DNA of 64,000 bases. Source: Phoronis australis (taxonomy: Eukaryota > Animalia > Phoronida). The translations under genes were made by a program, and so were the position numbers. This document shows positions 576-52,660 of the stretch, one piece after another. The stretch is taken from the NCBI GenBank assembly GCA_002633005.1, contig NMRA01000262.1, positions 161,208 to 225,207 of the forward strand, written 5' to 3'. The notes below the pieces were generated by a model. It made no database searches. It worked only from the letters and a program-made list of their open reading frames with translations, and had not been told where the DNA came from. How positions within the stretch are numbered: position 1 is the first letter of the stretch; each line of letters starts with the position of its first letter.

Positions 576-1264
576 CGGTAAAAATTCTTCAATTTGGGGA
601 AAAAGTGATTGTTAAAATTGCCATGTTTCTATTTTTCAGAGGCTTACCACATTGTTGCAAATGCTCAAAGTTTTACAAATAAATGCTGTTTGGTGATAGC
701 TACACCATACAAAAAATGTTAAGCGTAAAGAAAATTTTTCTGCAATTTTTTGTTTAGAAATTTGACAAAATAAAATTTCACTTCTCTGCTATGTTATGCC
801 ACAAACTAAAGATTTTTTTGTTATCGCTATAAGTAATGTTAACACATGAACATTTTACTCACAGCAGTGATTTCTCAACAAAATTATAGTACTATGATCT
901 TCACTTAATATCAAATTTGATTGAACTTTGATACCAGAGCAAAATCTGTGTGTATAATCAGGAAGGTGACACCTAGGGGCCTGTTACACCCAGTTACTTC
1001 TCATTGTGTTCTCATTTGTGTTGACACAGTAGGCTAAGACTGCTAGAAATGTGGTAAATGTTGAGTAATGAAAATACTTGTTCAGTACAATCTTAGAAAC
1101 AACTCCATGGACGGTGTCTCGTTCATTGCATGTTTTGGCCAAAGTTGCCCGTTACAGTGACACGTATAACATGGCCCTAACCACATAAGAAGTGTCCCCT
1201 TAAGCTGGCCAAAATTGATTTTAGTACCATTTCTCAGGATTTCTGCACCGTTCTTTTCCAACAG

Positions 1265-1297
1265 TGTCAGTTTCATATACTGCTGCACCAACAAACG
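1265..1297 (+). CDS. 33-nt phase 1-1 microexon, receptor stalk (VSVSYTAAPTN)
   Basis: ttcttttccaacAG acceptor, G|GTGAGT donor, length 3n, open in the phase matching the TM exon. Confidence 0.65.
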
Positions 1298-1729
1298 GTG
1301 AGTAAATTGCACAATGCTTAGCACTGAATAAACCTTCATCAATTAATATAAAAATGCCAGATTTAAGCAATCTTTTACAAATGAACTGATTAAATTTGCA
1401 TGCATTTAGAAATATGTCATCAACATTCAAAGTAACATTTTCAATACATTTCGCCGAAAGACTAAGTATAATCATAAGAAATGTATCTTCAACGTTAAAA
1501 GTGTCATCTTAAATGCAATTTCTGCGGAAATTCACATGACTGTGTACATAAGAAAGCTGTGACCATGATCATTCTTGTGACATTTTCAATTCAATTTCTC
1601 TAGATCACACTATGTAACTGTAACGCGGAGTTTAACGGGAACATTCAAAGTGGCGTTATTAATACAGGAATATTTTATGAAACCATGAGAATAATAGTAT
1701 TATAAGCATTTCTGCAACATTGTTTTCAG

Positions 1730-1762
1730 TGTAGGTTTTCTGCACTGTTGCGCCCACTGGTG
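1730..1762 (+). pseudogene. 33-nt microexon copy with in-frame TAG (dead or poison exon)
   Basis: tgttttcAG|TG TAG GTT...GGTG|GTAAAT; same length and position within the repeat unit as the intact copies. Confidence 0.5.
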
Positions 1763-2193
1763 GTAAATGAACCAAATAATGATGCAAATTTCAGCATTCA
1801 ATAAACTTGAATTAGTAGGATAAAGTCAAATTCAAAGTTGTAAGATATTTGAATTACATGGTGAGTTTACCAATCTTTATCAAATGCATGAAGGTAGCAA
1901 GTATCCATAAGATAGGTATATCTTAAGCATCACTAGATTACCGTATACAATTTGTTATGAATATCGCATGTAACATTAAGAAAGGTATCTACATAAGCGT
2001 TCAAAGTGGTACCTTCAAATTCAATGCTATTTTTACTAAGATTTCTGCACCTTTGTTTTCCGTACACCAGGTTTCATATTCAGTTATGCTCACAGTAAAC
2101 ATCAAAATTACGTCATTGTCAGCACTGAATGAAGTTAGTTAATTATTAGGATAATGCTCAATTCAAAACTGAAATGGAATTGAATTACATTAA

Positions 2194-3756
2194 AGGAGTA
2201 TGCCACCCAAAAAACAACCCATTTTGTATCAATTTAGAACGAGTAGTTCTACTCGATAACGGCACGTTCGGTTGCATTACCTGACACCTGACGATAGATG
2301 GAGGTGTTGAAATTATCCAATGACATAATTGGTTTCACACGCAGTCTGCTCAGTAGTTCACAACACGGGTTGCTGGCGTCATGTTATCTCTTGAATTCAT
2401 CGTTTAACACCAATAAATAATCGAACTTTGATGTAAAATCCTTAAAAATACATCGAGTTCTTATAAAAACATGTTGTTTTATTTCGCTGTTACGGATTTA
2501 TTGGTATTTGGACACACCGTAACCTACAAATGTCCGCAGGACAATTTACCAAGGTCCATAGCAGGAGTTTGGGGTCTGTTCAGAGATAAATTCGAAGTAT
2601 TCTTCCGTGAAATACAGACAGGAGAACCAAGAACTGTGTTGTTTAGACTTATAATTTTTTGAGTTCTAAACACACAAAACGCTTGTTATCCCAACCAGGG
2701 CTCGGAATCCGATCAGGCCTGTCGCGGCCGGACTGACTCGTTATCCCGGCCATTGGCTCGGAACCTGATCAGGCCCGTCGCGGCTGCCCTGACTGGCACG
2801 AACATAAACCAGCTTGAGTTGGCAACTAAACCTCCAGTCAGGAAAAGACTATATTAGTGAGCCAAAGAAATAATGGGAATTAGCAACGAAACTGAAAATC
2901 TACTTACTGTCGGGGGCCGCAAAGTTGGGTTCCCCTTCCACAGACCGTCAGGGCAAAGGTTGTACAGTATCAATGATTTGAATAATGTATTTGTATTTCT
3001 GAATAAAGATTCCCCTAACATGTGACCATAAGGGCATCTCAACATTTGCACTCACAAATACTGCAAAGGCATTACAAATTGTATCTAATGAGACAGACTA
3101 AGTTTCAGTTTTATATAAGCATTGGTTAGGATGAGAATAATTCATTTTGAAACAGAATGCAGAATAACAAACATCTACTTGACAACTCGCCCGGCGCCAA
3201 TCCCAAGTTAGTCAGGAGCTCATCTGATGAAGACTGCACGGATCCAATCTGTAGATTTCACAATCTATCAATTCGAACCGGGATACACTGATCAAGAAAT
3301 ACTAAAGAGGCACCGTGAACATGAACAGGCAACGGAACGTATGGTTAGTTCTTTGGTAAGCCGGAATTCGCCACAGAAATCACTGTCGATGAAATGCCGG
3401 CCACAGACACGGAGATGTTTCACGGCCTCATACTTGCTATTAACAGAGTACCTTTCATTCTTCACTACCACGAGCCACTTCCTAAGCATTTTGGGCTCTC
3501 GAGGAAGTCGAAAAAACGATATACCCGCTTTCTTCACAGCTTCATAGTTCGCACAAGCAGGTACGATGCACCGCGATATTGCATAGCGGCATTCATTCTG
3601 CAGACGAACCAATGACGTTGCTGCGTCGTTTTTCACCTTCCTTATAGGTTAACGCGACACCTCTCGGCAAGGTGAGGTCGACCGTATAAGAAGCGATGTG
3701 TATATAGACCGATTAAGACTGTAAAAAAGACTAATTAAATCGGGTGGCATTCTCCT
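2194..3756 (-). mobile_element. Kolobok-like non-autonomous DNA transposon carrying a THAP-domain remnant
   Basis: TIRs AGGAGTATGCCACCC (2194-2208) / GGGTGGCATTCTCCT (3742-3756), 1 mismatch; flanked by TTAA (2190-2193) and TTAG (3757-3760). TTAA TSD, RR termini and THAP are Kolobok hallmarks. Confidence 0.75.
3292..3636 (-). pseudogene. THAP zinc-finger (C2CH) domain, transposase N-terminal remnant
   Basis: CIVPAC...FFRLP...W...VCGRHF; no in-frame ATG at the domain start (ATA TCG CGG TGC), no catalytic domain follows. Confidence 0.85.
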
Positions 3757-3963
3757 TTAGCTAGTTTAGTAATGAAGATCACATGCGACCATAAGAAAGT
3801 CATCTTGTTCTTTGACATTCAAAGTAACATCTCAGGAAAGTCAAGCATGTGATTATGAGTGTCAACATTCAAAGTGGTGTCTTCAATGCAAGTTTTGAGG
3901 ATGTTTGCATGATGTGACATGACATATATCAACTTATTAAGATTTGTGCACCATTGCTTTCAG

Positions 3964-3996
3964 TGGCAGTTTCAACCCATATCGTGCCTACTACTA
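3964..3996 (+). CDS. 33-nt phase 1-1 microexon (VAVSTHIVPTT)
   Basis: ttgctttcAG acceptor, A|GTAAGT donor, 3n, open frame. Confidence 0.65.
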
Positions 3997-4379
3997 GTAA
4001 GTAAATAAATTATGGCATGTTCAGCACTGCATACTTTGTAGGGTAATGTCAAATTCAAAATTGTGACACTTTAATTTAATGTGGGGAGTTTACTAATTCT
4101 TAAACAAATGCACAAAGAGCGCCTGTAACCATAGGAAAGGTATTGTGTCTGAAGCATTTTTAATACAATTTCTTTGGGGGACCACTAACTTGTATTATCA
4201 CAAGCCATCAATGTGGTGTTTTCAGTGTCACTTCTCTAGAGCTTGTACCATAGAAAGGTATCCACATACCAGTGAATATTCAAATTGGTATCTTTGATCT
4301 TAAATACAATTTCAGAGAATGTTTCCATGAAAGTGTAAGAAAGTTATCATTTTATGCATTTCTAAACTATTGTTTTCAG

Positions 4380-4412
4380 TGCCTGTTTTATACACTGGTG
4401 TGTCCACAGGGG
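4380..4412 (+). CDS. 33-nt phase 1-1 microexon (xPVLYTGVSTG)
   Basis: tgttttcAG acceptor, G|GTAAGT donor, 3n, open frame. Confidence 0.65.
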
Positions 4413-4637
4413 GTAAGTGAGTTAACAAAATCATGTCATTTTCAGCACTGCATTGACTTGCATTGGGATAATGATGAATTCAAAATTGTAACAGACTCAA
4501 ATTACATGGAGAGTTAAGCAATCTTTAACGAACATATAAAGATCAAATGTAACCAGACGAAAATATCAACCTATGGTAAGCATTCAAACTGGTGTCTTCA
4601 ACGCAATTTCCTGGCATTTCTACACTATTCTTTTCAG

Positions 4638-4670
4638 TGCGAGTTTCACACACTATTGTGCCCACTGGTG
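4638..4670 (+). CDS. 33-nt phase 1-1 microexon (VRVSHTIVPTG)
   Basis: ttcttttcAG acceptor, G|GTAAGT donor, 3n, open frame. Confidence 0.65.
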
Positions 4671-4901
4671 GTAAGTAAACGAAACAAAAGATGATTTTCA
4701 GCTCTGAACTTTACTCTCCTGGGGAAGCAATTTTTTAAATAAATGCATGAAAATTGCGCGTTACCCTGAGGATCATAAAGTTTTAAAAGAAGTACCTTAA
4801 TACAATTTCTCTGGAGGATAACCTGTAACCATAAGAAAGGTATAACAAAATAAAACTGGTATCTTCAATGCAACTTTGGATTTCAACACCATTCTTTTCA
4901 G

Positions 4902-4928
4902 TGTGGATACCATTCACATCCACGCGTG
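4902..4928 (+). CDS. 27-nt phase 1-1 microexon (VWIPFTSTR)
   Basis: attcttttcAG acceptor, G|GTAAGT donor; 6 nt shorter than its siblings but still 3n. Confidence 0.6.
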
Positions 4929-6957
4929 GTAAGTAAACAAAACTCTACCATTTTCAGCTCTGAATGAACGTTTACCAATTCAGAGAAAATAGCAACTTGA
5001 TTAGGTGTTAGAATCTATCTGGCCACTCTGAATGAGCCATACCATGGGTATATAAATAGAGCCACAAACCAGATATTTTTACATTTATTGCCACTTTGTT
5101 TTGTGTGGAAATTGAGGAACAGAGCACTGGCTGACTTGGCTTTTGCACCCACCTTTTGAAACCTTAAAACAATATTGTTCAGTACTTACGGACACTAAAT
5201 ATAGAACCACCTGATAGGAGGTAAAATATTAAATAGACATACTTGGATCCTTATAACAAACTTTTTATCAGTTGCATTGTTCGGAAATGATATTAAATGA
5301 ATTGTTTTTAATCAGGTTTCTTTGGACCAATGTGTAAATAGTCTAATAATTAGTGTTTAAATAGGTGAAGCTCATCGGGCAGTATTTTAACAGGTTCCGT
5401 TAAGTTACATAGTGAATTAACAATATTAACAGATCCACAAACTTCTCTGAAATTTTCCCAAATTGCTTTTTCTTTACATGCTCCCTACTGAAGCATATTT
5501 GTATACAGTTGAGAAATCATCAAATTCATGTTCTTTCGTTCCCCGATATTTCTCCACTTCAATTAAATCAAATGGATTATGGTCTTTCTTCGTATCTGAA
5601 GCCGTACATTTCATACTTTTGGGTGTTCTAGGTATTTACAAGTTTCTAGAGTTTTGTAGGTCCTTGCCTGAGCAGTTTTGAAATTAATTGCTTCCTTTCT
5701 TTCACACTGCTCTCGTCTGCATCCAAAATAAACATCCTTCCACGCTATGGTACAGCTTCATTGCTTTCTTACATTGTCCATGCTATTTTGGCTATAACTT
5801 ATGTCCATATACAGTGACTCATCTCGGGGAAGTTCTTGGCTATGTCTGAGAATCATACATTTCTCTTTGAACTTTTTTGTTCATTGAGATATGAATTGAT
5901 TTGTTAATTATGCTTGTCTTTGTTGCTCTTTATTTTGAATTTATCTTTTAGTGAAAATAAGGTAGTTTGTCATTTCTTCCCACGGTGATGACAATTAGTC
6001 TTGTTGTCAATTTCAGTTTCAAATACCCATGATTTAGGTCATTTTTCATGAATTGCAGACTGGTTGTCTTGGATTTTTCCCCCATTTTAGGTTATTTGAA
6101 TCCATGTCTTTCTCTTCAAATCCAAGGAAAATGTTATTGCGGCGACATAGCCATTTTTTGAATTAATTAAATTTGCTTCTATTTTTGTCACCATGCTGTT
6201 ACTCAGTGGGGTGCGACAGGTGTAGAAACAGCCCTCCTTGTTTGACAAAAGACGTCTGCTCAAGGAATCATTCATGACCAGCTCAATTTATTTTCTTATT
6301 GATTTTGAAGTGTTTACGAAGCATCACGGCCCACGAACTAGATTGTTGATAAGACCCTGGGGACTTTAAAAGTAAGTCGCAGTTTCACACCTGCCTGTTG
6401 CAATGCTTTGCCATAGAAATTATCAAAGAAACTAAAACTTGGTTTAGATCATTATGAAACTGTTTCAGATGAGAAGTGGTCGTTATTACTTGAGATCATG
6501 CTTATAGGTCACAAAGGAGGTCATAAAGTGATCTGCCATATTGTAGAGCTGGGTGTTAAGAAGTGATGGATTGTCATTTTTTTCCAGCCATGAAATCATG
6601 GTTAACAATTTCAGACCATTTTTTACCAGTGAGTGGTCTAAATAAAAAGCTGCATAGTTATGTGACAAAAGGTGGATTGATTTGTTGCCACATTCTCTTC
6701 TGTGGTGGTGGTAAGTGATTCCGTTTGTGTTTTGAAATAATCCTTTCAAGTTTTTCAGTAGTCCGAATCAACAAGTTTGTTTTGTTCGCTATATCTTTCA
6801 ATATTCTGTGTTCTGAAAGTCAGTTCCAACGTTTTAGACGTCATCTGTCTTGTCTATATGTAATTCTTGTTACAAAGTTGGAAATCCTGGAAAATGGGGA
6901 ATGCTTCCATTCATAGAAGTCTATTTGAAACTGATGAGTATAAGAGCCGTGTAGTGT

Positions 6958-7094
6958 TGTAGGAATCAGAAACACACAATTATAAGCGAATAAAATACTA
7001 TATTGAAGCAGACACTTGATGTTGGTATATTGACAAAAATGAGACTAAACTACAGTGATTTCACAAATCGTTATAACTGATAGGTGGCACCACA
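6958..7094 (-). repeat. 3' LTR (TG...CA)
   Basis: Direct repeat of 10305-10441; immediately preceded on the - strand by polypurine tract GGAGGGGGG-TAC (7095-7106). Confidence 0.95.
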
Positions 7095-7144
7095 GTACCC
7101 CCCTCCAAGCGGAGGACTAAGGCAAATCCGAAGTGGGTGAAGAA

Positions 7145-9433
7145 TCACGAAAACGCACGGGCAAGCGCGAAACGGTCAATGATCGTGAAGAGATAGGTCA
7201 TGCCTTGGCTCGCTGGTAGTGGGCCAACAAGATCCACATGGAGACTGCGAAACCTGGCAGCCGGAGAGGGACGCTTTACCAAAGGTGCCCGTGTGTGTCG
7301 ATGTATCTTGGAAGCTTGACAAGCATGACACTCTTTGCACCACCGCCGTATATCACGTTTCATACCTCGCCAGACAAAGCGCTGAGTGAGAGCCTGCTGA
7401 GTAGGGCGAACGCCAGCGTGGGAAAGCCCATGAATACGATCAAAAACAGCACGGGCCCATGTAGAGGGCAAGACAGGTTGGGGCGTGTCAGTGGACGTGT
7501 CACAAAGCAGAGTCGAGTCGCCAAACGGAATATCTTGTAGAGCAAGGCCCGTTGTAGCGGTTCGATATTCCGCCATTTCAGGAGACTGGCCTTGGTCATG
7601 AGCCAGCTCGCGGAAGTCACCAACAGAAAAGATGCTATGGTCACTGGATATGCCATTGATGTCGAAACGGGATAGTGCGTCAGCCACCACGTTAAACTTG
7701 CCTTTAAGGTATCGGATGTCGGTAGTAAACTCAGCTATAAAAGCAAGGTGCCGTGCCTGACGTGGGGAACGCTCACTGCCACTGTGCAATGCTGACACTA
7801 ACGGCTTGTGGTCAGTGTATAACGCAAAAGGTCCGCCCTCTAAAAAATGCCTGAAGTGCTTAACTGCGTTATAGGCCGCCAGGAGTTCACGGTCGAAAGC
7901 ACTGTACTTATGCTCTGTTTCGGAAAGCTTGCGTGAGAAGAAAGCAAGAGGAACCCAAGTACCGTCCTGAAGTTGCGTCAGCTGAACACCGATGGCCTTG
8001 TTAGACGCATCGACCGTAACGCTTGTAGGCGAGGTCGGATGAGGGTGACGCAAGAGCACAGCTTTTTTAAGGGCGTCTTTGGCCTTTTCGAAAGCAGTTT
8101 GGCAGGCAGCTGACCAGGTAATAGCTTGGCCTTTACCACTAGCTTGCGCATGGAGTGGAGTCAGGGCATCAGCGACGTGTGGAATAAAACAGTGATAGTA
8201 GTTCATCAATCCCAGAAATCGTTGCAGCTCAGCACGATTGGTTGGGGGAGCACAATCTTGAATAGAGGCTATGCGATCGGGGAGCGGAAGGATCCCACGG
8301 GCTGTGACGTGGTGTCCAAGGAAAGCCAATTCGGCAGCACCAAAAATGCACTTGGGCTTATTGATGACGAGACCGTTGGAGGACAGTACCATAAAGATCT
8401 GACGAAGATGTTCCAGATGTTCGGCATGCGAGCGGCTGGCCACCAAGATGTCATCGAGGTAGACAAAAGCGAACGAAACGTCCCTGAAAATGCCTTCTAT
8501 AAGGCGTTGGAAAGCCTGGGCAGCGTTCTTGAGGCCAAAGGACATGCGAAGAAATTCCCACAATCCAAAAGGTGTGATTATTGCAGTCTTGGGCACAGAA
8601 GATGGCGCAACCGGAATCTGATGATAGCCCCGAACCAGATCAATTTTGGAGAAAACTTGGCATCCGGTCAGATGGTTGTTGAAATCATGGATATGCGGCA
8701 ACGGGTAGCGGTCATCCGTGGTAGAAGCATTAAGTTGTCTGTAGTCACCACAAGGGCGCCATAGACCACCAGGCTTGGGGACGACATGGAGCAGTGAAGA
8801 CCACGGTGAATTGGAACGGCGAATTATACCCATCTTTTCCATTCGCAGAAATTCATCTTTAGCCGCCGCCAGTCGTTCAGGATTCAAACATTGGGCACAT
8901 GCGTGGACAGGTGGTCCCTGGGTTATGATATGGTGTTCAACACCATGTTTATTCGCCATGGAATCAAAACACGGAGTAAACAGCTCTGAAAACTGTTGTA
9001 ACAAATGTGAGTACTCGTCGTGGGCATGAAAGGAGAGACCCGCAAGGGTCAGTGAAATCGTGTTATGTCGCAGAAGTACAGAGGGATTATCGATAGACAA
9101 AAGGCGCTTGCCCTTGAGATCAATAACTAGGTCGTGGGCAATAAAAAAATCAGCTCCCAGAATCGGGCGAGTAACATCGGCAAGATAAAATTCATGAGCG
9201 TACCGCTGCTTAGGGCTGACCACCACCGAGAGGGTACGGGTGCCCCATTTGTTTATGGAAGTTCCGTTAGCAGCGGAGAGAGGTGCAGAAGGTGGATTGG
9301 TCTTGCGGTCTGTTGCAGAGGCAGGATAAACAGAAACGTCGGCGCCAGTGTCAATTAAAAAATATCTACCAGTGTGTTGGTCAACAATGGAGAACGTGTT
9401 GGAGGTGGAGATGCCGGCCGCTACCACGTTCAA
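7145..9433 (-). CDS. pol: Gypsy pol (protease, RT, RNase H, truncated integrase), accessed by -1 frameshift
   Basis: LIDTGAD protease; [27 protein letters not shown]; VDAS, DRELLA, TDHKPL, ADALSR RNase H; HHCC zinc finger and [12 protein letters not shown], then abrupt stop. Confidence 0.95.
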
Positions 9434-9454
9434 CGGCCGGCTGTGGCGTTTCCC
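9392..9454 (-). promoter_or_regulatory. -1 ribosomal frameshift signal: G GGA AAC slippery site + H-type pseudoknot
   Basis: GGGAAAC (9454-9448) in gag frame, 6-nt spacer, stem GCCGGCCG/CGGCCGGC, loop GAACGTG complementary to downstream CACGTTC (9398-9392). Confidence 0.8.
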
Positions 9455-10275
9455 TGGTTATTTGTCTTGGGTATCGGTGATGCAAACTTGCAGCCAGGCG
9501 GGCATCGACGAGCCTCGGGCCCAAACTTCATGTGGTAGAAGCATACGGTGGAGGAACCCATAAGGGGGCTGGCGTCACCCTGCTGGGAACGGGAACGGCG
9601 TCGGAAACGCTTATCGGCAGAAACCACGTCCACCGAAGCGGACGTGGACTTGGCATTGTCATCATAAAAACCCGAAAACGTTGTCGGACTGGTGGTAGGC
9701 ATAGAGACATGTTGCACTCCGGCAGTACGTGCCTCCCAGATACGGTCAGCGGTCGTAGCAAGGTCCTCTATGCTATTAATGCTGTGGCCCGCCAGGATAG
9801 TGCGAACGTCGGAAGGCAGGTTCGTTAGGAATAAAGCACGTTTTAAAGTCTGGGGGTCATCATTGAGAGCGTTGATACGTCTCATCAGAGCGGTGGGACG
9901 TTTGTCACCCAGGCCATTGAGGTTCAAAAGCTCAGAGTCCTTCTGCGCCTGGGACTTTCCAAAAGCGTTGATGAGCGCGGACTTCAATGCGTTATACTTG
10001 TTTGTGAGTGGTGGGTGGAGGAGTATAGCCTGAACCTCGTCGGCTGTGGTGACATCAAGGGCACTCACCACATAATCATATTTTGTCTGATCTTGCACAA
10101 TCCCTTTCGTTCCAAACTGAGCCTCGACTTTGGCAAACCAAACTTCGGGCGATTTTGTCCAAAAGTCTGGCAACCTGATGGATACCGCGTTTACCTGAGT
10201 TGTTTGCATTGCAAGCGTCTGGAGAGTTGAGGCGAGGTCAGTAACAAGCTTTGTATCACTATGTCCCTCAGCCAT
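9430..10275 (-). CDS. gag: Gypsy gag-like protein
   Basis: 281 aa; RLPDFW..PEVWF..VEAQF N-terminus and C-terminal CFYH..FG.EA.RC...C motif typical of this Gypsy group. Confidence 0.92.
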
Positions 10276-10291
10276 TTTAAGTGTTCACTGT

Positions 10292-10303
10292 TCGAGGTCA
10301 CCA
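10292..10303 (-). promoter_or_regulatory. primer-binding site, tRNA-Trp-like
   Basis: TGGTGACCTCGA 1 nt after the 5' LTR; matches the canonical Trp PBS TGGTGACCCCGA with one G:U pair. Confidence 0.7.
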
Positions 10304-10304
10304 A

Positions 10305-10441
10305 TATAGGGATCAGAAACACACAATTATAAGCGAATAAAATACTATATTGAAGCAGACACTTGATGTTGGTATATTGACAAAAATGAGACTAAACTAC
10401 AGTGATTTAACAAATCGTTATAACTGATAGGTGGCACCACA
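10305..10441 (-). repeat. 5' LTR
   Basis: Direct repeat of 6958-7094; ends TATA instead of TACA on the - strand. Confidence 0.95.
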
Positions 10442-10849
10442 GTGTCATCAAGGGGAATACTTAACACACATTTTGTAAATCATGTCACAAATTCATGAAC
10501 TCAGTTATTTCTAATCATTAGTAAGAATTGCGACATATCTACTTTTTGAAAGAAACATAATTTGTAGAAACGGATGTTCTGAAAAATTGTGTAAACCAAA
10601 ATACAATCTGCATGGGAATTCATTGGTGGACATTTTGCTGGATGTGTATGGTAGTCAAGGTTGTGAACTTGTGAACCACTAGCCTTTCACTGGCATGATC
10701 TTGCATAATCTCACCAAACCAGCACGCAGTTATCATCGCAGAATGCACTGTATTACCACCACATATCAAGGCTTTGCCTGCTTACTTTGACCAATGCATC
10801 AAATTTAATGTAAAAATTTAAATTAAAAGTTTCTGGAATTTATGGAAGT

Positions 10850-11744
10850 TTTTAAATGTCCATATATTTTTATATGTGGGCACATTATGCCACCATCTTT
10901 GTCCGTCCATCCGGCATGTGCTGTTGTATTTCCAAAACCCCTTGATCTGTGTTGATGAAATTTTACAGATATGGTCCTATCATGGCTGAAACGGCATGAG
11001 CAAATTGACGGACGAATCCGAGAACTGTTGTGCAATTTTAATTTTGTTTACTTTTGCCTTTGCTGTTCGTTAATGGATTCTCATGAAACTTGGCAAATAG
11101 ACATCTATTAGGGAGATGATGCCACCTTCATGTTTGCAAATGGATTCAACGTATTTTGCAGCAGCTAGTACCCATTGTTACTGTTTTCAAGTGTTTTTGA
11201 AAATTTGTGATTGTGTTCTTACTGGGAAGAGCATGGTTGACGATTTTTAGACAGTTTGGACTACTGTGGCATCCCCTAGTGGCAGTTTGTGTTTTCACAT
11301 CTACAGCTATTTCTTCTTGTAGGTTCATTGATAAATTTGGCAAGTGTATTTCTATGAAGGTACAAAAGGTGACAATGTTAGATGTACCTGACTACCACTG
11401 TGCCCGCTTATTTTAATATTTTTACGATCTTGGCAGGTATACCATTGAGGAGAGCATTACTAACATGCTTAGCAATTTCTAGAGGCTATTTTATGTTTAC
11501 TGGCATTGCTGCATTTTGTGGTCGACAATAAATGATACCCACAACATGAACTACAATAACTTTAATAACTCTTAGAGATTTTAAAAACGTCTGATGTGTC
11601 GTGAAACAGAGAGAGATTTTATCAGCAAATATGCAAATTATACTGGCGCGGAATGCTTCAAATAATAATCATCCCTTGTATCTGCGCCATATGCAATGCA
11701 TACGCCTGTATGGGCACATAGCAACGCTCCACGTTGCTCTTGTT
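10850..11744 (+). mobile_element. HINE/DINE-1-like non-autonomous Helentron, family 1, copy A
   Basis: 5' subterminal IR (ATATGTGGGCACAT), GTCC microsatellite, internal repeats, 3' TGGGCACAT + GCAACG..CGTTGC palindrome + CTTGTT. Confidence 0.75.
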
Positions 11745-11850
11745 TTATGTCTAATTATTTGCGTCAAGTACTCGACCTAGATGTATGATAAAGGCCGTCA
11801 TATAATACATGTTAAATGGCTGACATAAAGTTGCATTGCTTTCCTTCCAG

Positions 11851-11947
11851 CTTCAGATGTTGGCTTGGCTGTGGGAGCAGCGTTGGGCGCAGTATTTGTT
11901 GTTGCTGTTATCGTCTTGCTCATTGTCTTCAGAAAGGAGATTTACAG
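11851..11947 (+). CDS. transmembrane exon of single-pass receptor (SDVGLAVGAALGAVFVVAVIVLLIVFRKEIYR)
   Basis: ttccttccAG acceptor (phase 1), hydrophobic run followed by RK stop-transfer, AG|GTATG donor (phase 2) compatible with the exon at 19604. Confidence 0.85.
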
Positions 11948-12604
11948 GTATGAATTGTATTACAGACTTTACAGTGTGTATTCTTTTGTCACAAGATGTC
12001 ATTTGTTTTTCCAATTTTGGTCCTTAAGGGGACTTGAATTATTTTATGTTCATCGCTGATTTATAGTCAAGAGTCCAGGGTTAATGGACTTTTCTAAATG
12101 TATTCTTTGACTTATATTGACACTTGCATACTTCATCCTATAAATGGTTGCCATTGATGCCTAAAATCTATGATGATGAACCAAAACTGTGTACTTAAAT
12201 ATTGTATTCATGTATGTGCAGTTTATGTAACTAACTCTCCTAATCTCATCTGTTGTCACTCCTCTCACAGCACTTTAATTAGTCTCCACTTATTCTGCTC
12301 AAAAATAATTACTAAATGTTATTTTCCATTTTGTTTTAAAAGCTGATAACCTTTCTGGAAATAAAAGAAACTTTATCAAATATTAGGTTAAGCAAAATCA
12401 ACTTACTCAGAGACTGAAGATTTAAGAGTTCGAAAGTTTTGGATTGTATTCTAGTGTCCTTTATCAATGAAAGGTGAAGGGACATCCTGGTTTCCCGCCA
12501 TTCTGTTCTCTGGAAGTAGTATGATATAAGAGATAGGTGGAAGCTGCAATCCCTGATCTCGATCCATACCTTCACCGAGACTAGGAAAAACCTTTCTTCA
12601 ATCT

Positions 12605-19603: not shown

Positions 19604-20150
19604 GAAATTGTGTGGTGCACCTATATCGCGACCAAAGTCAGCAATTTCTGAAGCCGAGCTTGAAGACAATCCACTGTACGAACAAGAACTTGAGGCTAGC
19701 AATGGCTGTAAAAGCCACAAACAGGACTCCCCCTATGAGAACATAGGCAAGTCCAAATCCAGCTGCAAGAACAGTGGTAAGACGTACGAGGAAATTGCCG
19801 ATGGTGGGAGATTGGGTCATGAACAAATCAGAAAGAGTCAGGAAGGAATTCTGGGACATTTTTATGATGAGATTCCTGGTGAAAAAAAGAAAACAAATCA
19901 AACTCCTGCCGCTTCATGCGGGGACTTATCATCAGTCATAGAACAATTTTATGCTGCTGTGGGTGATGACAATGAACAATCCGTCCCTGCGCCACCTGTT
20001 GTTTTAGATGATAAAGAGACTAGTGATGGTAATGATAATGATGATGATGATGATGATGAACCAGTGGAATATGCTGTGGTGGACCTGGAGAGAAAGAGAC
20101 AGGAGAGAGAAAGAAAGAAAACCGATGTTTGTGAGAATCCCAAGGCATAG
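19604..20150 (+). CDS. terminal exon: cytoplasmic tail with multiple tyrosine signalling motifs
   Basis: ttgttcccAG acceptor completes AG|G Arg from the TM exon; NPLY, PYENI, TYEEI, FYDEI, FYAAV, VEYAVV; stop TAG at 20148-20150. Confidence 0.85.
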
Positions 20151-27495: not shown

Positions 27496-28593
27496 TTACT
27501 TATAGTCGTGTCTTATTCTTAGATATCGGCAATCCTTCATGTCTTCCCAATCCGCGTCATTCAGTGTTGCATGAGCGCTCATCTCTTCAGGTGGAAATTC
27601 ACGATCTAACTGATATTCGTGCAGCCGCCGAAAAACGCTCCTGATCACCCGTTGAAATTTGATGGACGCCTGCTTTCTGGCAAACTGAGTTGATACTTCG
27701 TCAGCAGATGAACCAAATATACACTTAGGGTTCAATTCCGATTCGCAGAGCATTGATGACAAGCCGTCTCCCAACGCATCGAGTTTCGATCGACGGTGTT
27801 TCTCTACTAGTTGCCTAGCTACAGAGCTTGCTGCTGTCTTTTCGTGTTGCGACTCCTCATGATCCGAATTATATTTCTTTAAATTTAAATCAGATTCTGC
27901 AAATTCCAATCCACTCACAGAGTCATTTTTCTTGTTTTCCACTGCGGAATCTCCCACGCTATCGTCATTTTTTTCGTTAAGATCGTCTGCCAATACGCCC
28001 TTCATGCCATTCTTAGTGTCTGTGTCAGATTTTCCCGCCATTTGTTCTTTGTCGCCACAGATACCTTGACATTTGTCAGGAATTTCGTCCAAACTATCGG
28101 CAAATGTCACTCGTTTTCCTGGTGATTTTGAACAGATATCAACAGATAATCTCGGTAATGTGTTACTTCGAAGTAAACTTTTTGTCGGTTTTAGTACAAC
28201 TTGACTGCGCGATCTCTTCAACTTTTTCTCATGAGCAGATGATTTGTTCGTCTGCTTCATCGACTCTCCATCTTCCTGTCGAGGAGCAATTGGTGTCAAC
28301 TTTTCTCTTCTAAGCGTCCTCGGTGAATAGACGGAATTGTTATCTCCAACTTCAAAACTTGAACTTTTTGACGACGGAATTCCACAGCGCGGGGAGAACC
28401 CATGGTCGTGGTTTTTATCAACGACAATGGGAGGTAGATGTGCTGCGTACTTTTTTTCAAATTTCGCCTGAGATTTGCTTAAATTATCTAGCGCAGTATT
28501 AGATTGGTTTGACAGTCTCGTCAAAGTGTTCTGCAACACCCGGTCCTCTTGTGTATTTTGCACACGTAATCTCCTGAGTCTCGGAGAATCCAT
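27496..28593 (-). CDS. intronless 365-aa coiled-coil protein, CCDC190-like architecture
   Basis: ATG at 28593 (MDSPRLRRL..), N-terminal helix N..E...L...L..L...Q, low-complexity middle with KRVTF, C-terminal MKDCRYLRIRH; family assignment from recalled motif pattern only. Confidence 0.75.
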   Translation of the reverse strand: MDSPRLRRLRVQNTQEDRVLQNTLTRLSNQSNTALDNLSKSQAKFEKKYAAHLPPIVVDKNHDHGFSPRCGIPSSKSSSFEVGDNNSVYSPRTLRREKLTPIAPRQEDGESMKQTNKSSAHEKKLKRSRSQVVLKPTKSLLRSNTLPRLSVDICSKSPGKRVTFADSLDEIPDKCQGICGDKEQMAGKSDTDTKNGMKGVLADDLNEKNDDSVGDSAVENKKNDSVSGLEFAESDLNLKKYNSDHEESQHEKTAASSVARQLVEKHRRSKLDALGDGLSSMLCESELNPKCIFGSSADEVSTQFARKQASIKFQRVIRSVFRRLHEYQLDREFPPEEMSAHATLNDADWEDMKDCRYLRIRHDYK

Positions 28594-30940
28594 CACACGA
28601 AATCTGTATTCCACATCTTCACACAAATTTGTAAACGAAAAAATGTTACCAAGGAATCTCTTCGTGGAATATTTGTTCTCGAAATTCTCGTCGTTTCTCA
28701 CTGAGAGACCAGCTACAGCGCTACCTCATTTTGTTCAGCGAGTTGTCTATTAACAACGGCTTCTTATCTGAATTCTGTACTAATCGTTTTAGCTTCAAAT
28801 CCTAAGTCGATTAATTTATGTCCAAACACCTGTGACGAAACCATTGCTTTACGTAACAAAAATAAACTCTTGACCGAGATGGCTACAAGCATTTGAGTTC
28901 CTCCCTAAGGTCGACGATTCGTCAGTGTCCGGTCCGTCGTCAGGTCAACTGAGGTTCAACTAAAGTCAGTTTGCCCTACGGTATTGCCCGCCCACAGTCT
29001 ACCAAACATTTTCTGTACCTGACCTTGAGAAGCGCGGCGAACTTTAATGAGCAATAACAAGAAAACAATAACTCACGCACGTTGTTAGCTTGCTCGCATT
29101 CAAGTTTCCGGAGCAAGGCATGCGGGCTTTACTTGGAACAATGAAACTTGTTCAGTTGTTTGGATCTAATTAATTTTCATAAAAAAACTGAGTCAACCAT
29201 CACATTAACGCTGTTTTAGCGATATTCCTTCACTTCACCGTCGATTGATCATTAAATCTTATGAGATTTCAATAAATGAAGTGCCACAGATGAATGCGAG
29301 CGCGCGTGGTTTGAAGATTTACGGAAAATTGTTGACTGTTTTGGCCATTCAAGAAATGACGTCATTGAAAAATAGTAGATAGAAAGAATTGCACATTAAA
29401 TCGCTAAACAAACGCGGTGTTCTGACTTGGTGACAGCGATATATTTCGGCGTATTTTAGGCCCTATTTACGAAACTTAGACTTAATACTAAAGAGTGGTG
29501 ATTTCCTGATATACCAGATGTGTCAACTACAGTAACGAAAGAAGTAAGCATACCTTTGGTTGTGACTCAAGGAGTTAAAATTCATACATACATGGTTCGA
29601 TTAGGAAATGTCTGGTATTGCTACACATCTGAGTTCTTTTTTGTTTTTTTGACTTACGGTGAAAGATGAATGTAAGACAAAATATTGTCAAAAAGAGAAC
29701 TTCACAAAACAGATTATTTAAGTAGTCGTCCTGACTTTCAGAAAGATGGCTTTATGTTTGAATGTCGTAGTTCGGTACCACTGACGATTTACATTAAAAC
29801 AGCGAATATCTCAAATTTGTCTCTGCAAAGTTAATCTTGTCAGGACAGCTTTTAACGAAAAATGAAGTCACGACATCTATTAGAAGCGAGCAGCCCAATT
29901 TTGTATGCGTTGGCCAACTTCGTGCCAAGGTATGGCCTTTTGACATTCTATCTACTTCCAGACTTCGTAAAATGGTAGGTTTAGGAATAGAAATATTTTT
30001 TATTGTGGTGTGAAGTGAACAGGTTAGATTGTAAGAGGCATGAATACAAAGGTAAGCCCCTTTATAGTAAAACACAGCCATTTAAAACTAATGCTGATTA
30101 AATGTTTATATAAAAACTCACATCTACGTGATCTATTGATGGGCTCCCTAAACAATCGAGATAACATTTCACACTTTGTAAGGCAGTAGGCCTACGTCAG
30201 GCTACACTGCTAAAACCACTCATTTTGTTGCATTTATTTTGACTAGTGTTTTTCTTTTTTAAGTCAGACCGAATTTTCTGTCACCATAGTAATCTATGAA
30301 CTTGTCAGGAAGTTATGAGTGAATTATTGATAAAACAGTGACTGAAGACACACAGACACCTTTACCCCTTTCCAGTTTTCGTAACCTGTCTTGCATTTCA
30401 GCAAGAGTGAAATGGCTCAGAATGCAAGACCGAATAAAACTTGTGTGTTCATCTGTTAGTGTACAGCTCTTGGTGTGTAATGGCTCAAAACGTTCCATTA
30501 CTTGCATACGGCTTTTGACGGAGTGAAGAAAACATGCGCGCACCCAGCCTAAAAAATGGGGGGCTTAAATTTTTGAGAATTTGGACCTTTTACTAAGATT
30601 CGGCAGGGGGTACCTTTAAAGCTACGAACGGTGCATTCGTCGATTTTTGGTAGTTCCTGGCTCTTTAGTGGACTTTGGTCTCGTCCTCTATTTTCTTCTG
30701 AGTTTTTGTTTCTCTGAGGGGGACCTTTTTGCCCACTTCGCCAAATGGGGAGCTCGTTCGAGTTCCCCTCCCCCCTCCCCCCAGGTACGATAAGGTACTC
30801 CTTAAAATGTATTTAATAATTATATGTTTCCATAGCTTGCTTTACAAATTTCTCTACTGTGAGAAGCACTGATGATTCGAAATTCTATAACCTTTCTTAA
30901 CCTTTGACTTCAAAACTCGAGTTCACAAATCGATTTCACT

Positions 30941-33758: not shown

Positions 33759-35064
33759 TTGGTTAAAAGAGCATGGGCGCAAACAGATCAGAAAAACATA
33801 AAATACTTTAATTGACAACCACCATTAATCAAATTGAAATTAATTTTAATTTTAGAGGCCTGGATGCTTCAGCAATCATTTTGTCTGAATTTTGAAGTAG
33901 CATGTCAACGGGAAGGCCTTTTTATCATCTTCTTGCAATACATCCCTTTTTGAGTTCTCATTTCAGGTAATCTAAACAAATCTATATAAAAAGGCATCAA
34001 CTTATTTTATTTCACCAACAAAAAGTCAACAAATCACAATTAATTCCATAAATTAACATAAACCACATAATGTAACATACTTGTAATAAGCAGTATTAAC
34101 AGATTATTAAACAATTTCTGAACAAAAATACCACAGCGCCTCTCTTGATTCTGAAACATTTACCCACAATGCTATGCACAAATAAGGCACTACACTCTTT
34201 CACAGTGCTAGGAAAGGTAGCACTGTTGTATGTTGTTTAACATGGCTTCTCATTGGTTCAAGTAATGAAACCAACGCCATAACATTCAGTCATTTCCATT
34301 GAACGAAATCAGTAACTCTGTTTCAGTTTACTGTTTCCAAGTAAGGTGACCACCTTAGACTTGAATAGTTGTAATTTATTAAAGGGGGCAGTGATCGGAT
34401 CCACCGGCTTTGGTCCAAACAGGAACAGTGCACAGAGATGTGTGCAAGTGTTGGCAATGTGATCGGTATACTTCCGACATGCGCACTGATGACCACACAC
34501 TCAATTCTGTATGTCATTCATCATGTTTCCACAAGGCCACTTTTCAGTATACTAGGTGGCGCTGTGTCAGAGGGTAATAGGGCACTTGACACACAGTTGT
34601 ACATTTTTGCCATCGTAATACATAATTATTTCATATTAAAACTACTTTCCCATTCATCATTCAGCAAAGTTTTAACTCTGCAGTGGGTTGAAATGCTCAC
34701 AACAAAAAATTGACAAGAATTAAACAGAAAATCTAATCTCATAAACAATTAGCTGCAAAACTTTTGAAAACTGGATCAATCACTTCAAGCAATGTGTTTT
34801 TCTACCTCCATTAGAGGAGAGATGAAGTTGAGACGTGGCTTTTGTCTTACATATAACAATATTTCCTGTATCCCTAGAACCAGAAACAAAGTATCTCTTC
34901 CTATGTTGTGAGGACAGTAGAACCAGAAATATCAAGTATGTAAATGAAGAGATGCTAGAATAGGAGACAAAAGTAATCGGACAAAATGACATTTCCCCAT
35001 CATGATGAGAAATTATAGTTCTAATGGCAAAAATGGTTGATAATGACTAATACGCCGCTGGCAA

Positions 35065-35771
35065 ACTTTCTTGTCAGTTGTCCTTCAATGTCAGTCACAA
35101 GACTATTAACTTTTCCTGTCAATTGCCCTTCATTGTCAGTCACAAGACTATTAACTTTGTTGTCAATTGCCCTTCATTGTCAGTCACAAGACTATTAACT
35201 TTCTTGTCAATTGCCCTTCATTGTCAGTCACAAGACTATTAACTTTCTTGTCAATTGCCCTTCATTGTCAGTCACAAGACTATTAACTTTCCTGTCAATT
35301 GCCCTTCATTGTCAGTCACAAGACTATTAACTTTGTTGTCAATTGCCCTTCATTGTCAGTCACAAGACTATTAACTTTCCTGTCAATTGCCCTTCATTGT
35401 CAGTCACAAGACTATTAACTTTCTTGTCAATTGCCCTTCATTGTCAGTCACAAGACTATTAACTTTCTTGTCAATTGCCCTTCATTGTCAGTCACAAGAC
35501 TATTAACTTTCTTGTCAATTGCCCTTCATTGTCAGTTACAAGACTATTAACTTTCCTGTCAATTGCCCTTCATTGTCAGCCACAAGGCTATTAACTTTGT
35601 TGTCAATTGCCCTTCATTGTCAGTCACAAGACTATTAACTTTCTTGTCAGTTGTCATTCACTGTCAGCCACAAGACTACTAACTTTGTTGTCAATTGCCC
35701 TTCATTGTCAGTCACAAGAAGACTATTAACTTTCTTGTCAATTGCCCTTCATTGTCAGTCACAAGACTATT
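35065..35771. repeat. 44-bp minisatellite, ~16 copies
   Basis: TTCTTGTCAATTGCCCTTCATTGTCAGTCACAAGACTATTAACT. Confidence 0.97.
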
Positions 35772-40229: not shown

Positions 40230-41068
40230 TTGCACAATAATCAACTGCTGGCTTATGACCCTTCCTAATTGGGCCATTATGTTGCACAATAATCAACTGC
40301 TGGCTTATGACCCTTCCTAATTGGGCCATTATGTTGCACAATAATCAACTGCTGGCTTATGACCCTTCCTAATTGGGCCATTATGTTGCACAATAATCAA
40401 CTGCTGGCTTATGACCCTTCCTAATTGGGCCATTATGTTGCACAATAATCAACTGCTGGCTTATGACCCTTCCTAATTGGGCCATTATGTTGCACAATAA
40501 TCAACTGCTGGCTTATGACCCTTCCTAATTGGGCCATTATGTTGCACAATAATCAACTGCTGGCTTATGACCCTTCCTAATTGGGCCATTATGTTGCACA
40601 ATAATCAACTGCTGGCTTATGACCCTTCCTAATTGGGCCATTATGTTGCACAATAATCAACTGCTGGCTTATGACCCTTCCTAATTGGGCCATTATGTTG
40701 CACAATAATCAACTGCTGGCTTATGACCCTTCCTAATTGGGCCATTATGTTGCACAATAATCAACTGCTGGCTTATGACCCTTCCTAATTGGGCCATTAT
40801 GTTGCACAATAATCAACTGCTGGCTTATGACCCTTCCTAATTGGGCCATTATGTTGCACAATAATCAACTGCTGGCTTATGACCCTTCCTAATTGGGCCA
40901 TTATGTTGCACAATAATCAACTGCTGGCTTATGACCCTTCCTAATTGGGCCATTATGTTGCACAATAATCAACTGCTGGCTTATGACCCTTCCTAATTGG
41001 GCCATTATGTTGCACAATAATCAACTGCTGGCTTATGACCCTTCCTAATTGGGCCATTATGTTGCACA
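40230..41068. repeat. 52-bp minisatellite, ~16 apparently identical copies (HINT3 intron 2)
   Basis: TTGCACAATAATCAACTGCTGGCTTATGACCCTTCCTAATTGGGCCATTATG. Confidence 0.98.
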
Positions 41069-41347: not shown

Positions 41348-41568
41348 GTCATGGATCTGATCCAGTTGTCATGGATCTGATCCAGTTGTCATAGATCTGA
41401 TCCAGTTGTCATGGATCTGATCCAGTTGTCATGGATCTGATCCAGTTGTCATGGATCTGATCCAGTTGTCATAGATCTGATCCAGTTGTCATAGATCTGA
41501 TCCAGTTGTCATGGATCTGATCCAGTTGTCATGGATCTGATCCAGTTGTCATGGATCTGATCCAGTTG
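41348..41568. repeat. 20-bp minisatellite, ~11 copies
   Basis: GTCAT(G/A)GATCTGATCCAGTT; unit contains the TGGATC-T-GATCCA inverted repeat. Confidence 0.97.
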
Positions 41569-43136
41569 GGTGAAGTGTCAGCGTAGGATTCTTTTCATGA
41601 TGAAGTTAATTATCCAAATCTGTAACTATCATACAGATCATCAACAGAATTTCCCCAGGCCAAAGCACTAGACAGGACTATTACTAGCTTTACAACATAA
41701 CTACTAATTGTGAATGGATTTGTTTGACTTAAAGACCATTGGTAACTAGCATTTTATGCTGGCGACGAACCTGACACCATCTTCCAATGCTATGTGGTTT
41801 CATGAACGTGCTTCTCCATTCAAATTTCACTGCATTTTATGACGTCTTTAGATTCCTCTCATAACCCATGGTGTATACAAGACAAGTAGTCACATTATAT
41901 TGCTCCTGCAATTGGCACTGTAATCAAGACAAAGGAACAGCAGTTGCAATACGCTATTTCTCTTGTAGTAATAGTATAGTAATAGAATTTCCTCGTGTAG
42001 TAAAACGATTTTTGCCATTCAAATAATGAAAAGTTTAATTTTCAATGGCAGATTAGTTTTTATAGTTTACAGTGCCATAATTGCCGGTCATACAATGTAG
42101 CGCCTAAAGGTTGAGTTGTGTAACAACACCACGTCCAAATCATCAGTGATGCAGCTTGCAAGCCATGGTGAGTTTGGCAGAATTGTTCATGAAAGCACCA
42201 ACATTACAGTACAGATCACAACCACCCCACTATCAACATTTATTGTGAAGTAGTCATTTCGAGTTTGTTGGCAACGTGCTGTTGAAAATGGTGATAATTC
42301 TGGATGATGCCTGTAGAGTTTACCATTGTTGTATCTCCATAATGGACTCATTCTGAAGCCCTGGATACTCACTGTATATAAACATCTCTACATACACTGG
42401 AAATGACAATAGCATTTTTTAAAATTTTTATTTTGAAAATTTTAAAAAGTATATTTGAATAGTTTGTGAAAAGTACACGTGATTAAGTTTTTAAAGTTTG
42501 AAAATCGGACAAGAAATGTGACTTTTGCAACCTAAACTAAAACATTTTACACAATGCAGTGTTTGAAAAATGAAGAATGACAATTATAGCCAAAAATTTT
42601 GTTCATATTTCAAGAAACAAATAAAAGTCAAAACATTAACATCAAAACATTCCATTTGTGACGCGTGCCATTTGTTTGTTTGTTTGATAGAGCAACATCT
42701 TTCACGAGACAACTTCACTGAAGGAATATTTGTTCTTTCCATTTGCAGGTTGCAAAGTACACACAACTTCTAACAATGTACTAAACAATTCTCGTAACTT
42801 CTTTAAAACTGTGCGCAAACTTGTGTAAAAAACAGTGGATTAAAGAATCATAGAAACATAAATTGGCCAACAGATGTCACATAATCTATTACATGGTGAT
42901 CAAAGCTGCCACATATGGTTACCCCAACACTTAACTACAGAATAACACATTAACAATATTTTTATCAATCTGGTAACCAAATTAGTTTAGAAAAGGAAGG
43001 TGTGTAGTTTTTAATGGCATTCATTTTGTGTCCAATGTTATTTCACCAGGTTTTCCCACATCAATCTAAAGCTATTTTGCATTTTCAGCTTTGCAGCAAG
43101 ACTATAGACTTTCCAGTTCAGATCAATAGCTCATAC

Positions 43137-43254
43137 CAACAGCAACATGGTGGCGCTGCAAATACCCCGCATTCTTGATATGAGTCTTTGTAATGACCAA
43201 ATAGTGATGGTCAGTGGCTGGACGGTGGTCAGGGAACACAACCAAGTCATCATC
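43137..43254 (-). CDS. HINT3: HINT3 exon 2 (DDDLVVFPDHRPATDHHYLVITKTHIKNAGYLQRHHVAV)
   Basis: HIT-family F.D..P....H.LV..K.H motif; catcAG / G|GTATGA, phase 0-1. Confidence 0.95.
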
Positions 43255-43839
43255 CTGATGAGAAAAATCACATGCTCAATAACAAATATACAGAGTCTGA
43301 AGACTGGCAAACCCAGTAAAGGTTTGATAGACTACGATTTCCTTATGAGACTTTGTAATTAAAGAAACTGTAATTTCTTCTCAAGTCAAGCAACCACACT
43401 CAACATCATTTATGTCCATTTTCTACTGAAACAGTTCACGAACTACAGTTGACTATCATTACTATAGATATAAGTAGACACTAGTATAATGAGTCACCGA
43501 ACCATTAAACCTAAAATGGTCCATCCACACTGCACTCTTGCATAGCTGTATTTAAGTGACCAGCTGGTAGGTGCTACTAAACTGAATGATATCAAGTGAT
43601 AAATAAGTGGTTTCCCAAAATAATCAACAATTAAAAATATATACGTGATTATCAGTAGCCATGTTTATTCTGTTTTAGCTAGCGATAGTTAGTTACAGTT
43701 GAAAACTTATGCTTCATCAGTCACAGTGTTTTACTGTCAAAAGCAGCCGAGCAGTCTGGCAGGTCAAGGAATCGTCAATTTTTAATTTTCACAATCAATC
43801 TTATACTCTCCAGCAGCATCTACGATTTTGAGATGAGGA

Positions 43840-50452: not shown

Positions 50453-50559
50453 GTGCAGTGCAACCATCGACTACTATTTCTGTGTTAATGGGTAAGTTTC
50501 TCTTACCTTTACATACTCTAATTTTCTCTTCGCTCATTGCCTTGAAATTCATTTGGGGC

Positions 50560-52527: not shown

Positions 52528-52660
52528 TGTAACATGCCTATGTAACATGCCTATGTAACATGCCTATGTAACATGCCTATGTAACATGCCTATGTAACAT
52601 GCCTATGTAACATGCCTATGTAACATGCCTATGTAACATGCCTATGTAACATGCCTATGT
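52528..52660. repeat. 13-bp minisatellite running into an assembly gap
   Basis: (TGTAACATGCCTA)n, ~10 copies before the N run. Confidence 0.95.

Follow-up and report, generated by a model that had tools for sequence, protein, structure and literature searches.

In a 64-kb stretch of the Phoronis australis genome (contig NMRA01000262.1, positions 161,208 to 225,207 of the forward strand; hereafter the window), a satellite-like array of diverged repeats lies ahead of an exon encoding a transmembrane (TM) segment, which raises the question of whether these repeats are very short exons of a receptor-like gene and, if so, how they are used. We consider it probable that the array is a set of optional microexons, all of them skipped in most transcripts, and that a minority of transcripts join a member of the family to the TM exon. 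The window is repeat-rich eukaryotic DNA of about 38% GC, with GT-AG introns backed by RNA. It holds the array, the TM exon and the tail exon, and the 5' part of the receptor gene is outside it. Searches of Rfam returned no match within positions 1-21000, and Pfam gave only a match below the cutoff. The features of the gene, numbered by position in the window, are as follows.

1265-1297, + strand: unit 1, 33-nt phase-1 microexon, VSVSYTAAPTN; the closest match in the window to an RNA loose end (run X7, below)
1730-1762, + strand: unit 2, 33 nt, retaining both splice sites with a weaker donor (GTAAAT), V*VFCTVAPTG
~2033-2134, + strand: unit 3, decayed copy with the family acceptor CAG changed to CCG and the 3' end shortened
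3964-3996, + strand: unit 4, 33-nt microexon, VAVSTHIVPTT
4380-4412, + strand: unit 5, 33-nt microexon, V/MPVLYTGVSTG
4638-4670, + strand: unit 6, 33-nt microexon, VRVSHTIVPTG
4902-4928, + strand: unit 7, 27-nt microexon, VWIPFTSTR, 6 nt shorter in frame
11851-11947, + strand: transmembrane exon, entered in phase 1 and left in phase 2 (SDVGLAVGAALGAVFVVAVIVLLIVFRKEIYR), with RNA depth
19604-20150, + strand: last coding exon, a 181-residue cytoplasmic tail with NPLY, YENI, YEEI, YDEI, YAAV and VEYAVV

The array spans 1.2–5.0 kb, and six of its seven units combine AG/GT splice sites with an exon length divisible by three (33 nt in five, 27 nt in one), each with a pyrimidine tract and CAG acceptor and a GTGAGT, GTAAAT or GTAAGT donor. 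Read in phase 1, five units are open, with 42% Ser, Thr or Pro over those five. By self-BLAST and alignment, the units derive from a single exon-plus-intron unit; their longer matches extend over about 90-270 nt at 66-77% identity. When a profile built from the six was searched against the 64 kb, unit 3 was recovered at E=2e-11 and the next best match at only E=0.37; all seven copies lie on the strand of the receptor gene. A preliminary description of the locus, made from the letters alone, had proposed about seven diverged units duplicated whole, six of them with acceptor, donor and these same lengths, and had translated the five open peptides. Our analysis reproduced the splice sites, exon lengths and translations, and the count came to six intact units and one decayed copy.

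A strict microexon pattern occurs at 6 distinct loci in the array's 3.8 kb, where about 0.2 would be expected, and gives 7 matches (6 distinct loci) in the roughly 124 kb, both strands counted, outside it. As the units are duplicates of one another, this enrichment rules out chance without establishing function. The introns between units measure 225-432 nt (2201 nt where an insertion is present) and are thus long enough for units to be chained. Within unit 1, an internal CAG at 1268-1270 would yield a 27-nt in-frame form. Unit 2, with its in-frame TAG, may be either a pseudoexon or a stop-introducing exon.

The RNA evidence came from three raw-read runs labelled with the same species (X6, X7 and X8, about 19% of each being read) and from a contig set (X9). 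Reads and contigs were mapped to the TM exon (11770-12060), where depth is limited to 11850-11948 and is nearly all on the sense strand. The exon has two allelic differences, both silent. On its 3' side, all 35 listed reads (with 0 mismatches) and one contig run on into 19605 onwards. The phase-1 TM exon that the preliminary description had placed at 11851 is thus real, and the RNA shows its splice to the last exon at 19604. A wider read mapping, over 600-12050, was dominated by a terminal inverted repeat (TIR) element inserted in the array, with 15 of 30 joints and 24 of 852 loose ends listed; unit junctions with 3-4 reads could escape the joints listed there.

On the 5' side of the TM exon, four groups of loose ends were listed. 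The listed junction reads number 22 (8 from X7 and 14 from X8), with about 3 more in X6 and about 4 more in X8 under the listing threshold. The dominant partner, a Ser/Thr-rich phase-1 piece ending …MSTATEMDI, is carried by 14 reads of X8 (agreement 0.99), 3 reads of X7 and one X9 contig. It is absent from both strands of the window, where its best match has 11 mismatches in 30 letters. If the dominant partner lies 5' of the window, as gene order implies, its transcripts skip all seven units; 17 of the 22 listed reads together with the X9 contig carry it in place of a window unit. We infer that this partner is itself another microexon. It begins differently in X7 than in X8/X9, giving two 5-letter ends, which may reflect an allele or a different preceding exon, i.e., chained microexons.

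The remaining 5 of the 8 X7 junction reads carry a minor partner with the end of a unit-family exon (agreement 0.78), and none of the listed X8 reads does. In phase 1 this end reads SVSYTVTPTS. It lies 5 mismatches in 30 letters from unit 1, whereas the best match in 200 shuffles had at least 9, and its first 16 letters are identical to unit 1. The five differences are the letters of unit 7 in register, and all of them fall within the 14 letters closest to the junction (post hoc p=0.014). Unit-family exons are therefore joined by splicing to the TM exon itself, and what stands ahead of that exon is alternative. The preliminary description would have fallen had transcripts reached the TM exon without ever including these segments, and five reads with a unit-like exon speak for inclusion.

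The agreement of 0.78 indicates that the five X7 reads are heterogeneous, and blends of the window's own units were compared with them. Out of 31,500 five-read blends, 45 give the minor consensus without contradiction, at an agreement of up to 0.75. The best blend, with five ties at 0.75, takes two reads each from units 1 and 7 and a single one from unit 2 or 6, and unit 7 is required in each of the best 25 blends listed. As a control, random five-change variants of unit 1 were reproduced in 0 and 1 of 1000 trials. These results suggest that the copies in the minor reads are units 1 and 7 together with unit 2, 5 or 6. The earlier proposal that units join the TM exon in frame is accordingly borne out for a unit-family end.

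No unit-to-unit joint appears among the 15 of 30 joints listed over 600-12050. In the contigs, pieces of 30-33 letters were mapped, but the same was not confirmed for raw reads, and the missing unit-to-unit joints are therefore suggestive and not conclusive. An additive ladder of 33-nt steps, which the preliminary description had offered as a check, was likewise not seen. Its further proposal of a stalk tuned by exon skipping stands insofar as at least two upstream exons are used, but chaining of units found no support and most reads skip all seven.

Several observations weigh against a role for the window's units as optional exons. The family support amounts to five reads from one run and one 30-letter consensus, and mates may count twice. 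The blend control used random changes and not family-like ones, and a sister unit not seen in the window fits equally, three such reads plus two unit-7 reads reaching an agreement of up to 0.83. There is no sense depth in the bins of units 1 and 5 in X6 and X8, even though X8 covers the TM exon about 21-fold; none of units 1, 5, 6 and 7 is covered by an X9 contig; and several other unit bins have a depth equal to that of whole 151-nt intronic reads. A near-identical paralogous TM exon could also exist elsewhere. At the level of the encoded peptides, the four open 33-nt units have a pooled non-synonymous divergence (pN) of 0.40 against a synonymous divergence (pS) of 0.47, with no signal of purifying selection, and no codon-position pattern was found across them. 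Finally, two of the seven units are broken, unit 2 by its TAG and unit 3 by decay.

Nevertheless, the array has not drifted evenly. Pairwise identity is 69% in the upstream flank, 61% in the exon and 69% in the downstream flank. Among flank indels, 52 of 60 pairwise are not multiples of three, while the exons vary in length solely by the 6 nt of unit 7. The preliminary description had the rest of each unit drifting around a kept core: flank lengths do change, but flank sequences are more alike than the exons. In the core splice-site columns (-3 to -1 and +1 to +6), 7 of 9 are invariant, compared to 18-28% of gapless flank columns (binomial probability about 0.003, a statistic biased by the units having been chosen for their splice sites). 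Constraint is thus apparent on length, phase and splice sites but not on the peptide sequence, a pattern that would fit a low-complexity stalk, diversifying selection or partial decay.

An intronic motif (AGCACTGAA-like or TTCAGCACTGAA-like) is conserved 21-30 nt past each donor (1314-1329, 1787-1802, 4017-4032, 4438-4453, 4694-4709 and 4950-4965). In its TTCAGCACTGAA-like form it resembles a decoy acceptor and shows partial complementarity to the CAGTG acceptor of its own unit. A silencing hairpin was also considered and set aside: most units have their splice sites paired in local folds, without a shared structure and without a shuffle control.

If the array does consist of optional microexons, it would have arisen as a series of optional inserts when a symmetric phase-1 exon was duplicated unequally together with its flanks. 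The definition of short exons is weak, and by default they are skipped. A fraction of transcripts would take one or a few of them, each adding an insert of 9-11 residues, and any subset would keep the frame since all units are phase 1-1. The inserts would alter the length of a Ser/Thr/Pro-rich, membrane-adjacent segment outside the cell and likely its O-glycan pattern. Inclusion of unit 2 would stop the protein ahead of the TM segment, because of its TAG, and give a truncated product.

The product would be a single-pass membrane protein, probably signalling through SH2-binding tyrosines in its tail that resemble immunoreceptor tyrosine-based inhibitory motifs (ITIMs). Six tyrosines occur in the 181 residues of the tail, and two of them we take to fit an ITIM-like pattern (SPYENI and VEYAVV). 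Three protein searches found no homologue of the tail, a single match to P0003, a repetitive cuticle-type protein, being spurious, and no Pfam family was assigned to it. Language-model features gave scores of 0.76-0.79 against the transmembrane adaptors PAG and LIME1 (Pfam PF15347 and PF15332), which are below 0.9, come with a low recognition value and serve as a lead only.

A strict choose-one cassette, mutually exclusive in the manner of Dscam1 and placing exactly one array exon in each transcript as the last of the ectodomain, seems to us unlikely. Direct joins of different units to the TM exon, with unit 1 skipping all later ones, are the best reading of the junction reads and are what such a cassette would produce; the missing unit-to-unit joint would suit it too, although with only 15 of the 30 joints listed. 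The exons also diverge faster than their flanks, and a conserved AGCACTGAA-like motif stands behind each donor. However, a docking site would require a reverse complement of the intronic motifs, and none at up to 3 mismatches was found in the intron before the TM exon; duplex energies of the motifs with that intron equal those of shuffles. The introns are too long for steric exclusion, and the two 5-letter ends ahead of the dominant partner may be chained microexons (or alleles). Equally doubtful to us is a bolder version, in which a choose-one (or individual- or cell-specific) cassette of fast-diversifying microexons would swap a membrane-adjacent, glycosylatable tag of 9-11 residues on an orphan ITIM-like invertebrate receptor, the stop unit acting as a switch to a soluble form, as a Dscam-like recognition code.

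Another account takes the window's copies as a relic, i.e., decaying pseudoexons spliced at noise level, with the expressed member upstream or in a paralogue. The broken units 2 and 3, the two transposons inserted nearby, a pN/pS near 1, the two runs without depth over either unit 1 or unit 5, and an X7 consensus identical to no unit in the window would all follow from it. Yet through about 30% flank divergence and frequent indels that are not multiples of three, six units have kept their splice sites and lengths divisible by three and five have stayed open, and the blend analysis favours units 1 and 7. As such, we think it improbable that the array is a relic.

That all open units are chained into a constitutive or mostly additive mucin-like stalk, occasionally trimmed by skipping, might be suggested by their common 1-1 phase and their Ser/Thr/Pro content. 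This is very improbable, as it is contradicted for the samples seen by the 17 of 22 junction reads and the contig that skip all seven units and also conflicts with the stop in unit 2; it could survive solely in other tissues. Hardly credible at all is a neutral satellite or dispersed repeat carrying AG/GT motifs by descent, since, although flanks are conserved as much as exons or more, just seven copies occur in the 64 kb, all on the gene's strand, no reads pile up at 90% likeness as they do on the TIR element inside the array, and family sequence is found spliced to the TM exon.

Two mobile elements interrupt this part of the gene.

2194-3756, strand not assigned: dispersed TIR element with 15-nt inverted ends and TTAA/TTAG flanks, inserted in the array
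6960-10443, - strand: long terminal repeat (LTR) retrotransposon in the intron before the TM exon, with 137-nt LTRs 98.5% alike and open reading frames (ORFs) that are gag-like and of reverse transcriptase/RNaseH/integrase-Zn type

The TIR element, which we take to be Kolobok-like, looks non-autonomous and has a 56-nt tandem repeat inside. Its depth in the RNA runs is about 60-175, with loose ends at 2190 and 3759, and a joint from 3753 to 2193 in 17 RNA reads may come from tandem copies or circles elsewhere. The LTR retrotransposon appears young, and its pol ORF stops early in the integrase. Just downstream of the receptor gene, on the opposite strand, 27496-28725 (-) holds a single open frame of 409 codons for which no Pfam family or homologue was found. 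At 43126-43260 (-) there is an exon of a HIT-family gene (DcpS_C, E=8e-9; HIT, E=6e-4), further exons of which are probably between 38 and 47 kb. A lone 33-nt AG/GTAAGT segment at 50459-50491 (+), open in phase 1 (VQPSTTISVLM), is not an array homologue by profile and is possibly a microexon of another gene. Near-perfect minisatellites with periods of 38, 44, 52, 20 and 13 lie at 53-400, 35064-35771, 40230-41068, 41348-41568 and 52528-52660, respectively.

The locus thus offers an orphan membrane protein with tyrosine motifs whose ectodomain has RNA-supported, optional tandem microexons. Exons of this kind are invisible to ORF finders and are lost in ordinary read mapping. If the difference in usage between X7 and X8 is real, the gene would allow germline-encoded receptor diversification to be tested in a small system. 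The principle is already known from CD44, the schistosome micro-exon genes (MEGs) and the SmPoMucs; what is new here is the junction evidence for the array as optional and mostly skipped. Literature searches on microexon arrays in invertebrate receptor stalks found no tyrosine-motif receptor gene of this kind.

Among known systems, Dscam1 has mutually exclusive exon clusters governed by RNA pairing between a docking site and selectors, and its alternative exons encode halves of Ig domains. The array resembles it in that its alternative exons are diverged tandem duplicates and belong to a receptor ectodomain. Unlike Dscam1, the exons here are low-complexity stalk exons of 9-11 codons, and the intron before the TM exon yielded no docking/selector pairing. 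The adaptors PAG and LIME1 have a very short ectodomain, and to our knowledge a variable microexon ectodomain is not a feature of theirs; the likeness lies in a disordered, multi-tyrosine tail, by language-model features, and the protein here has no Pfam PAG or LIME1 match.

The array belongs to none of the three systems that come next. MEGs are defined operationally by a run of at least four consecutive exons shorter than 70 nt and divisible by three, in a gene of at least seven exons of which micro-exons make up at least half (PMC7653826). MEGs mostly encode small secreted proteins, three being membrane-anchored, and are reported as restricted to platyhelminths (PMC4350168, PMC7653826, PMC4015677). 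Such a run is present at the DNA level in units 4-7, and the visible exons are the five open units, the TM exon and the last exon, plus at least one exon off the window. Similar to MEGs as those papers describe them, there are runs of symmetric micro-exons of lengths divisible by three, skipping variants and high non-synonymous divergence (PMC4350168, PMC7653826, PMC4015677). The small secreted build is not found here: a TM exon is followed by a 181-residue tyrosine-motif tail in one large exon. No homology to MEG families was detected, the tail alone having been searched and the microexon peptides being too short.

In SmPoMuc genes, a 27-bp exon with its flanking introns is tandemly repeated and encodes mucin-type repeats (PMC2576457). 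The shared trait is a microexon that, with its flanking introns, forms tandem genomic units. The SmPoMuc units are given there as about 1 kb long, with more than 94% intron identity, separated by microsatellites and of few exon types (PMC2576457), whereas the units here are 0.25-0.45 kb long and about 69% alike, with no microsatellite between them, each exon is different and mostly skipped, and the tail is of a signalling type. Lastly, CD44 carries variant exons in its stem, and its standard form consists of the constant exons alone (PMC9351704). CD44 has an N-terminal hyaluronan-binding domain and, in contrast to the 181-residue tail with six tyrosines here, a short tail, and the optional exons here are 27-33-nt tandem duplicates of one unit, with no sequence homology to CD44 found. 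Both genes nonetheless place optional exons in a membrane-proximal, glycosylated stem (putatively so here), and in both the default form skips all of them.

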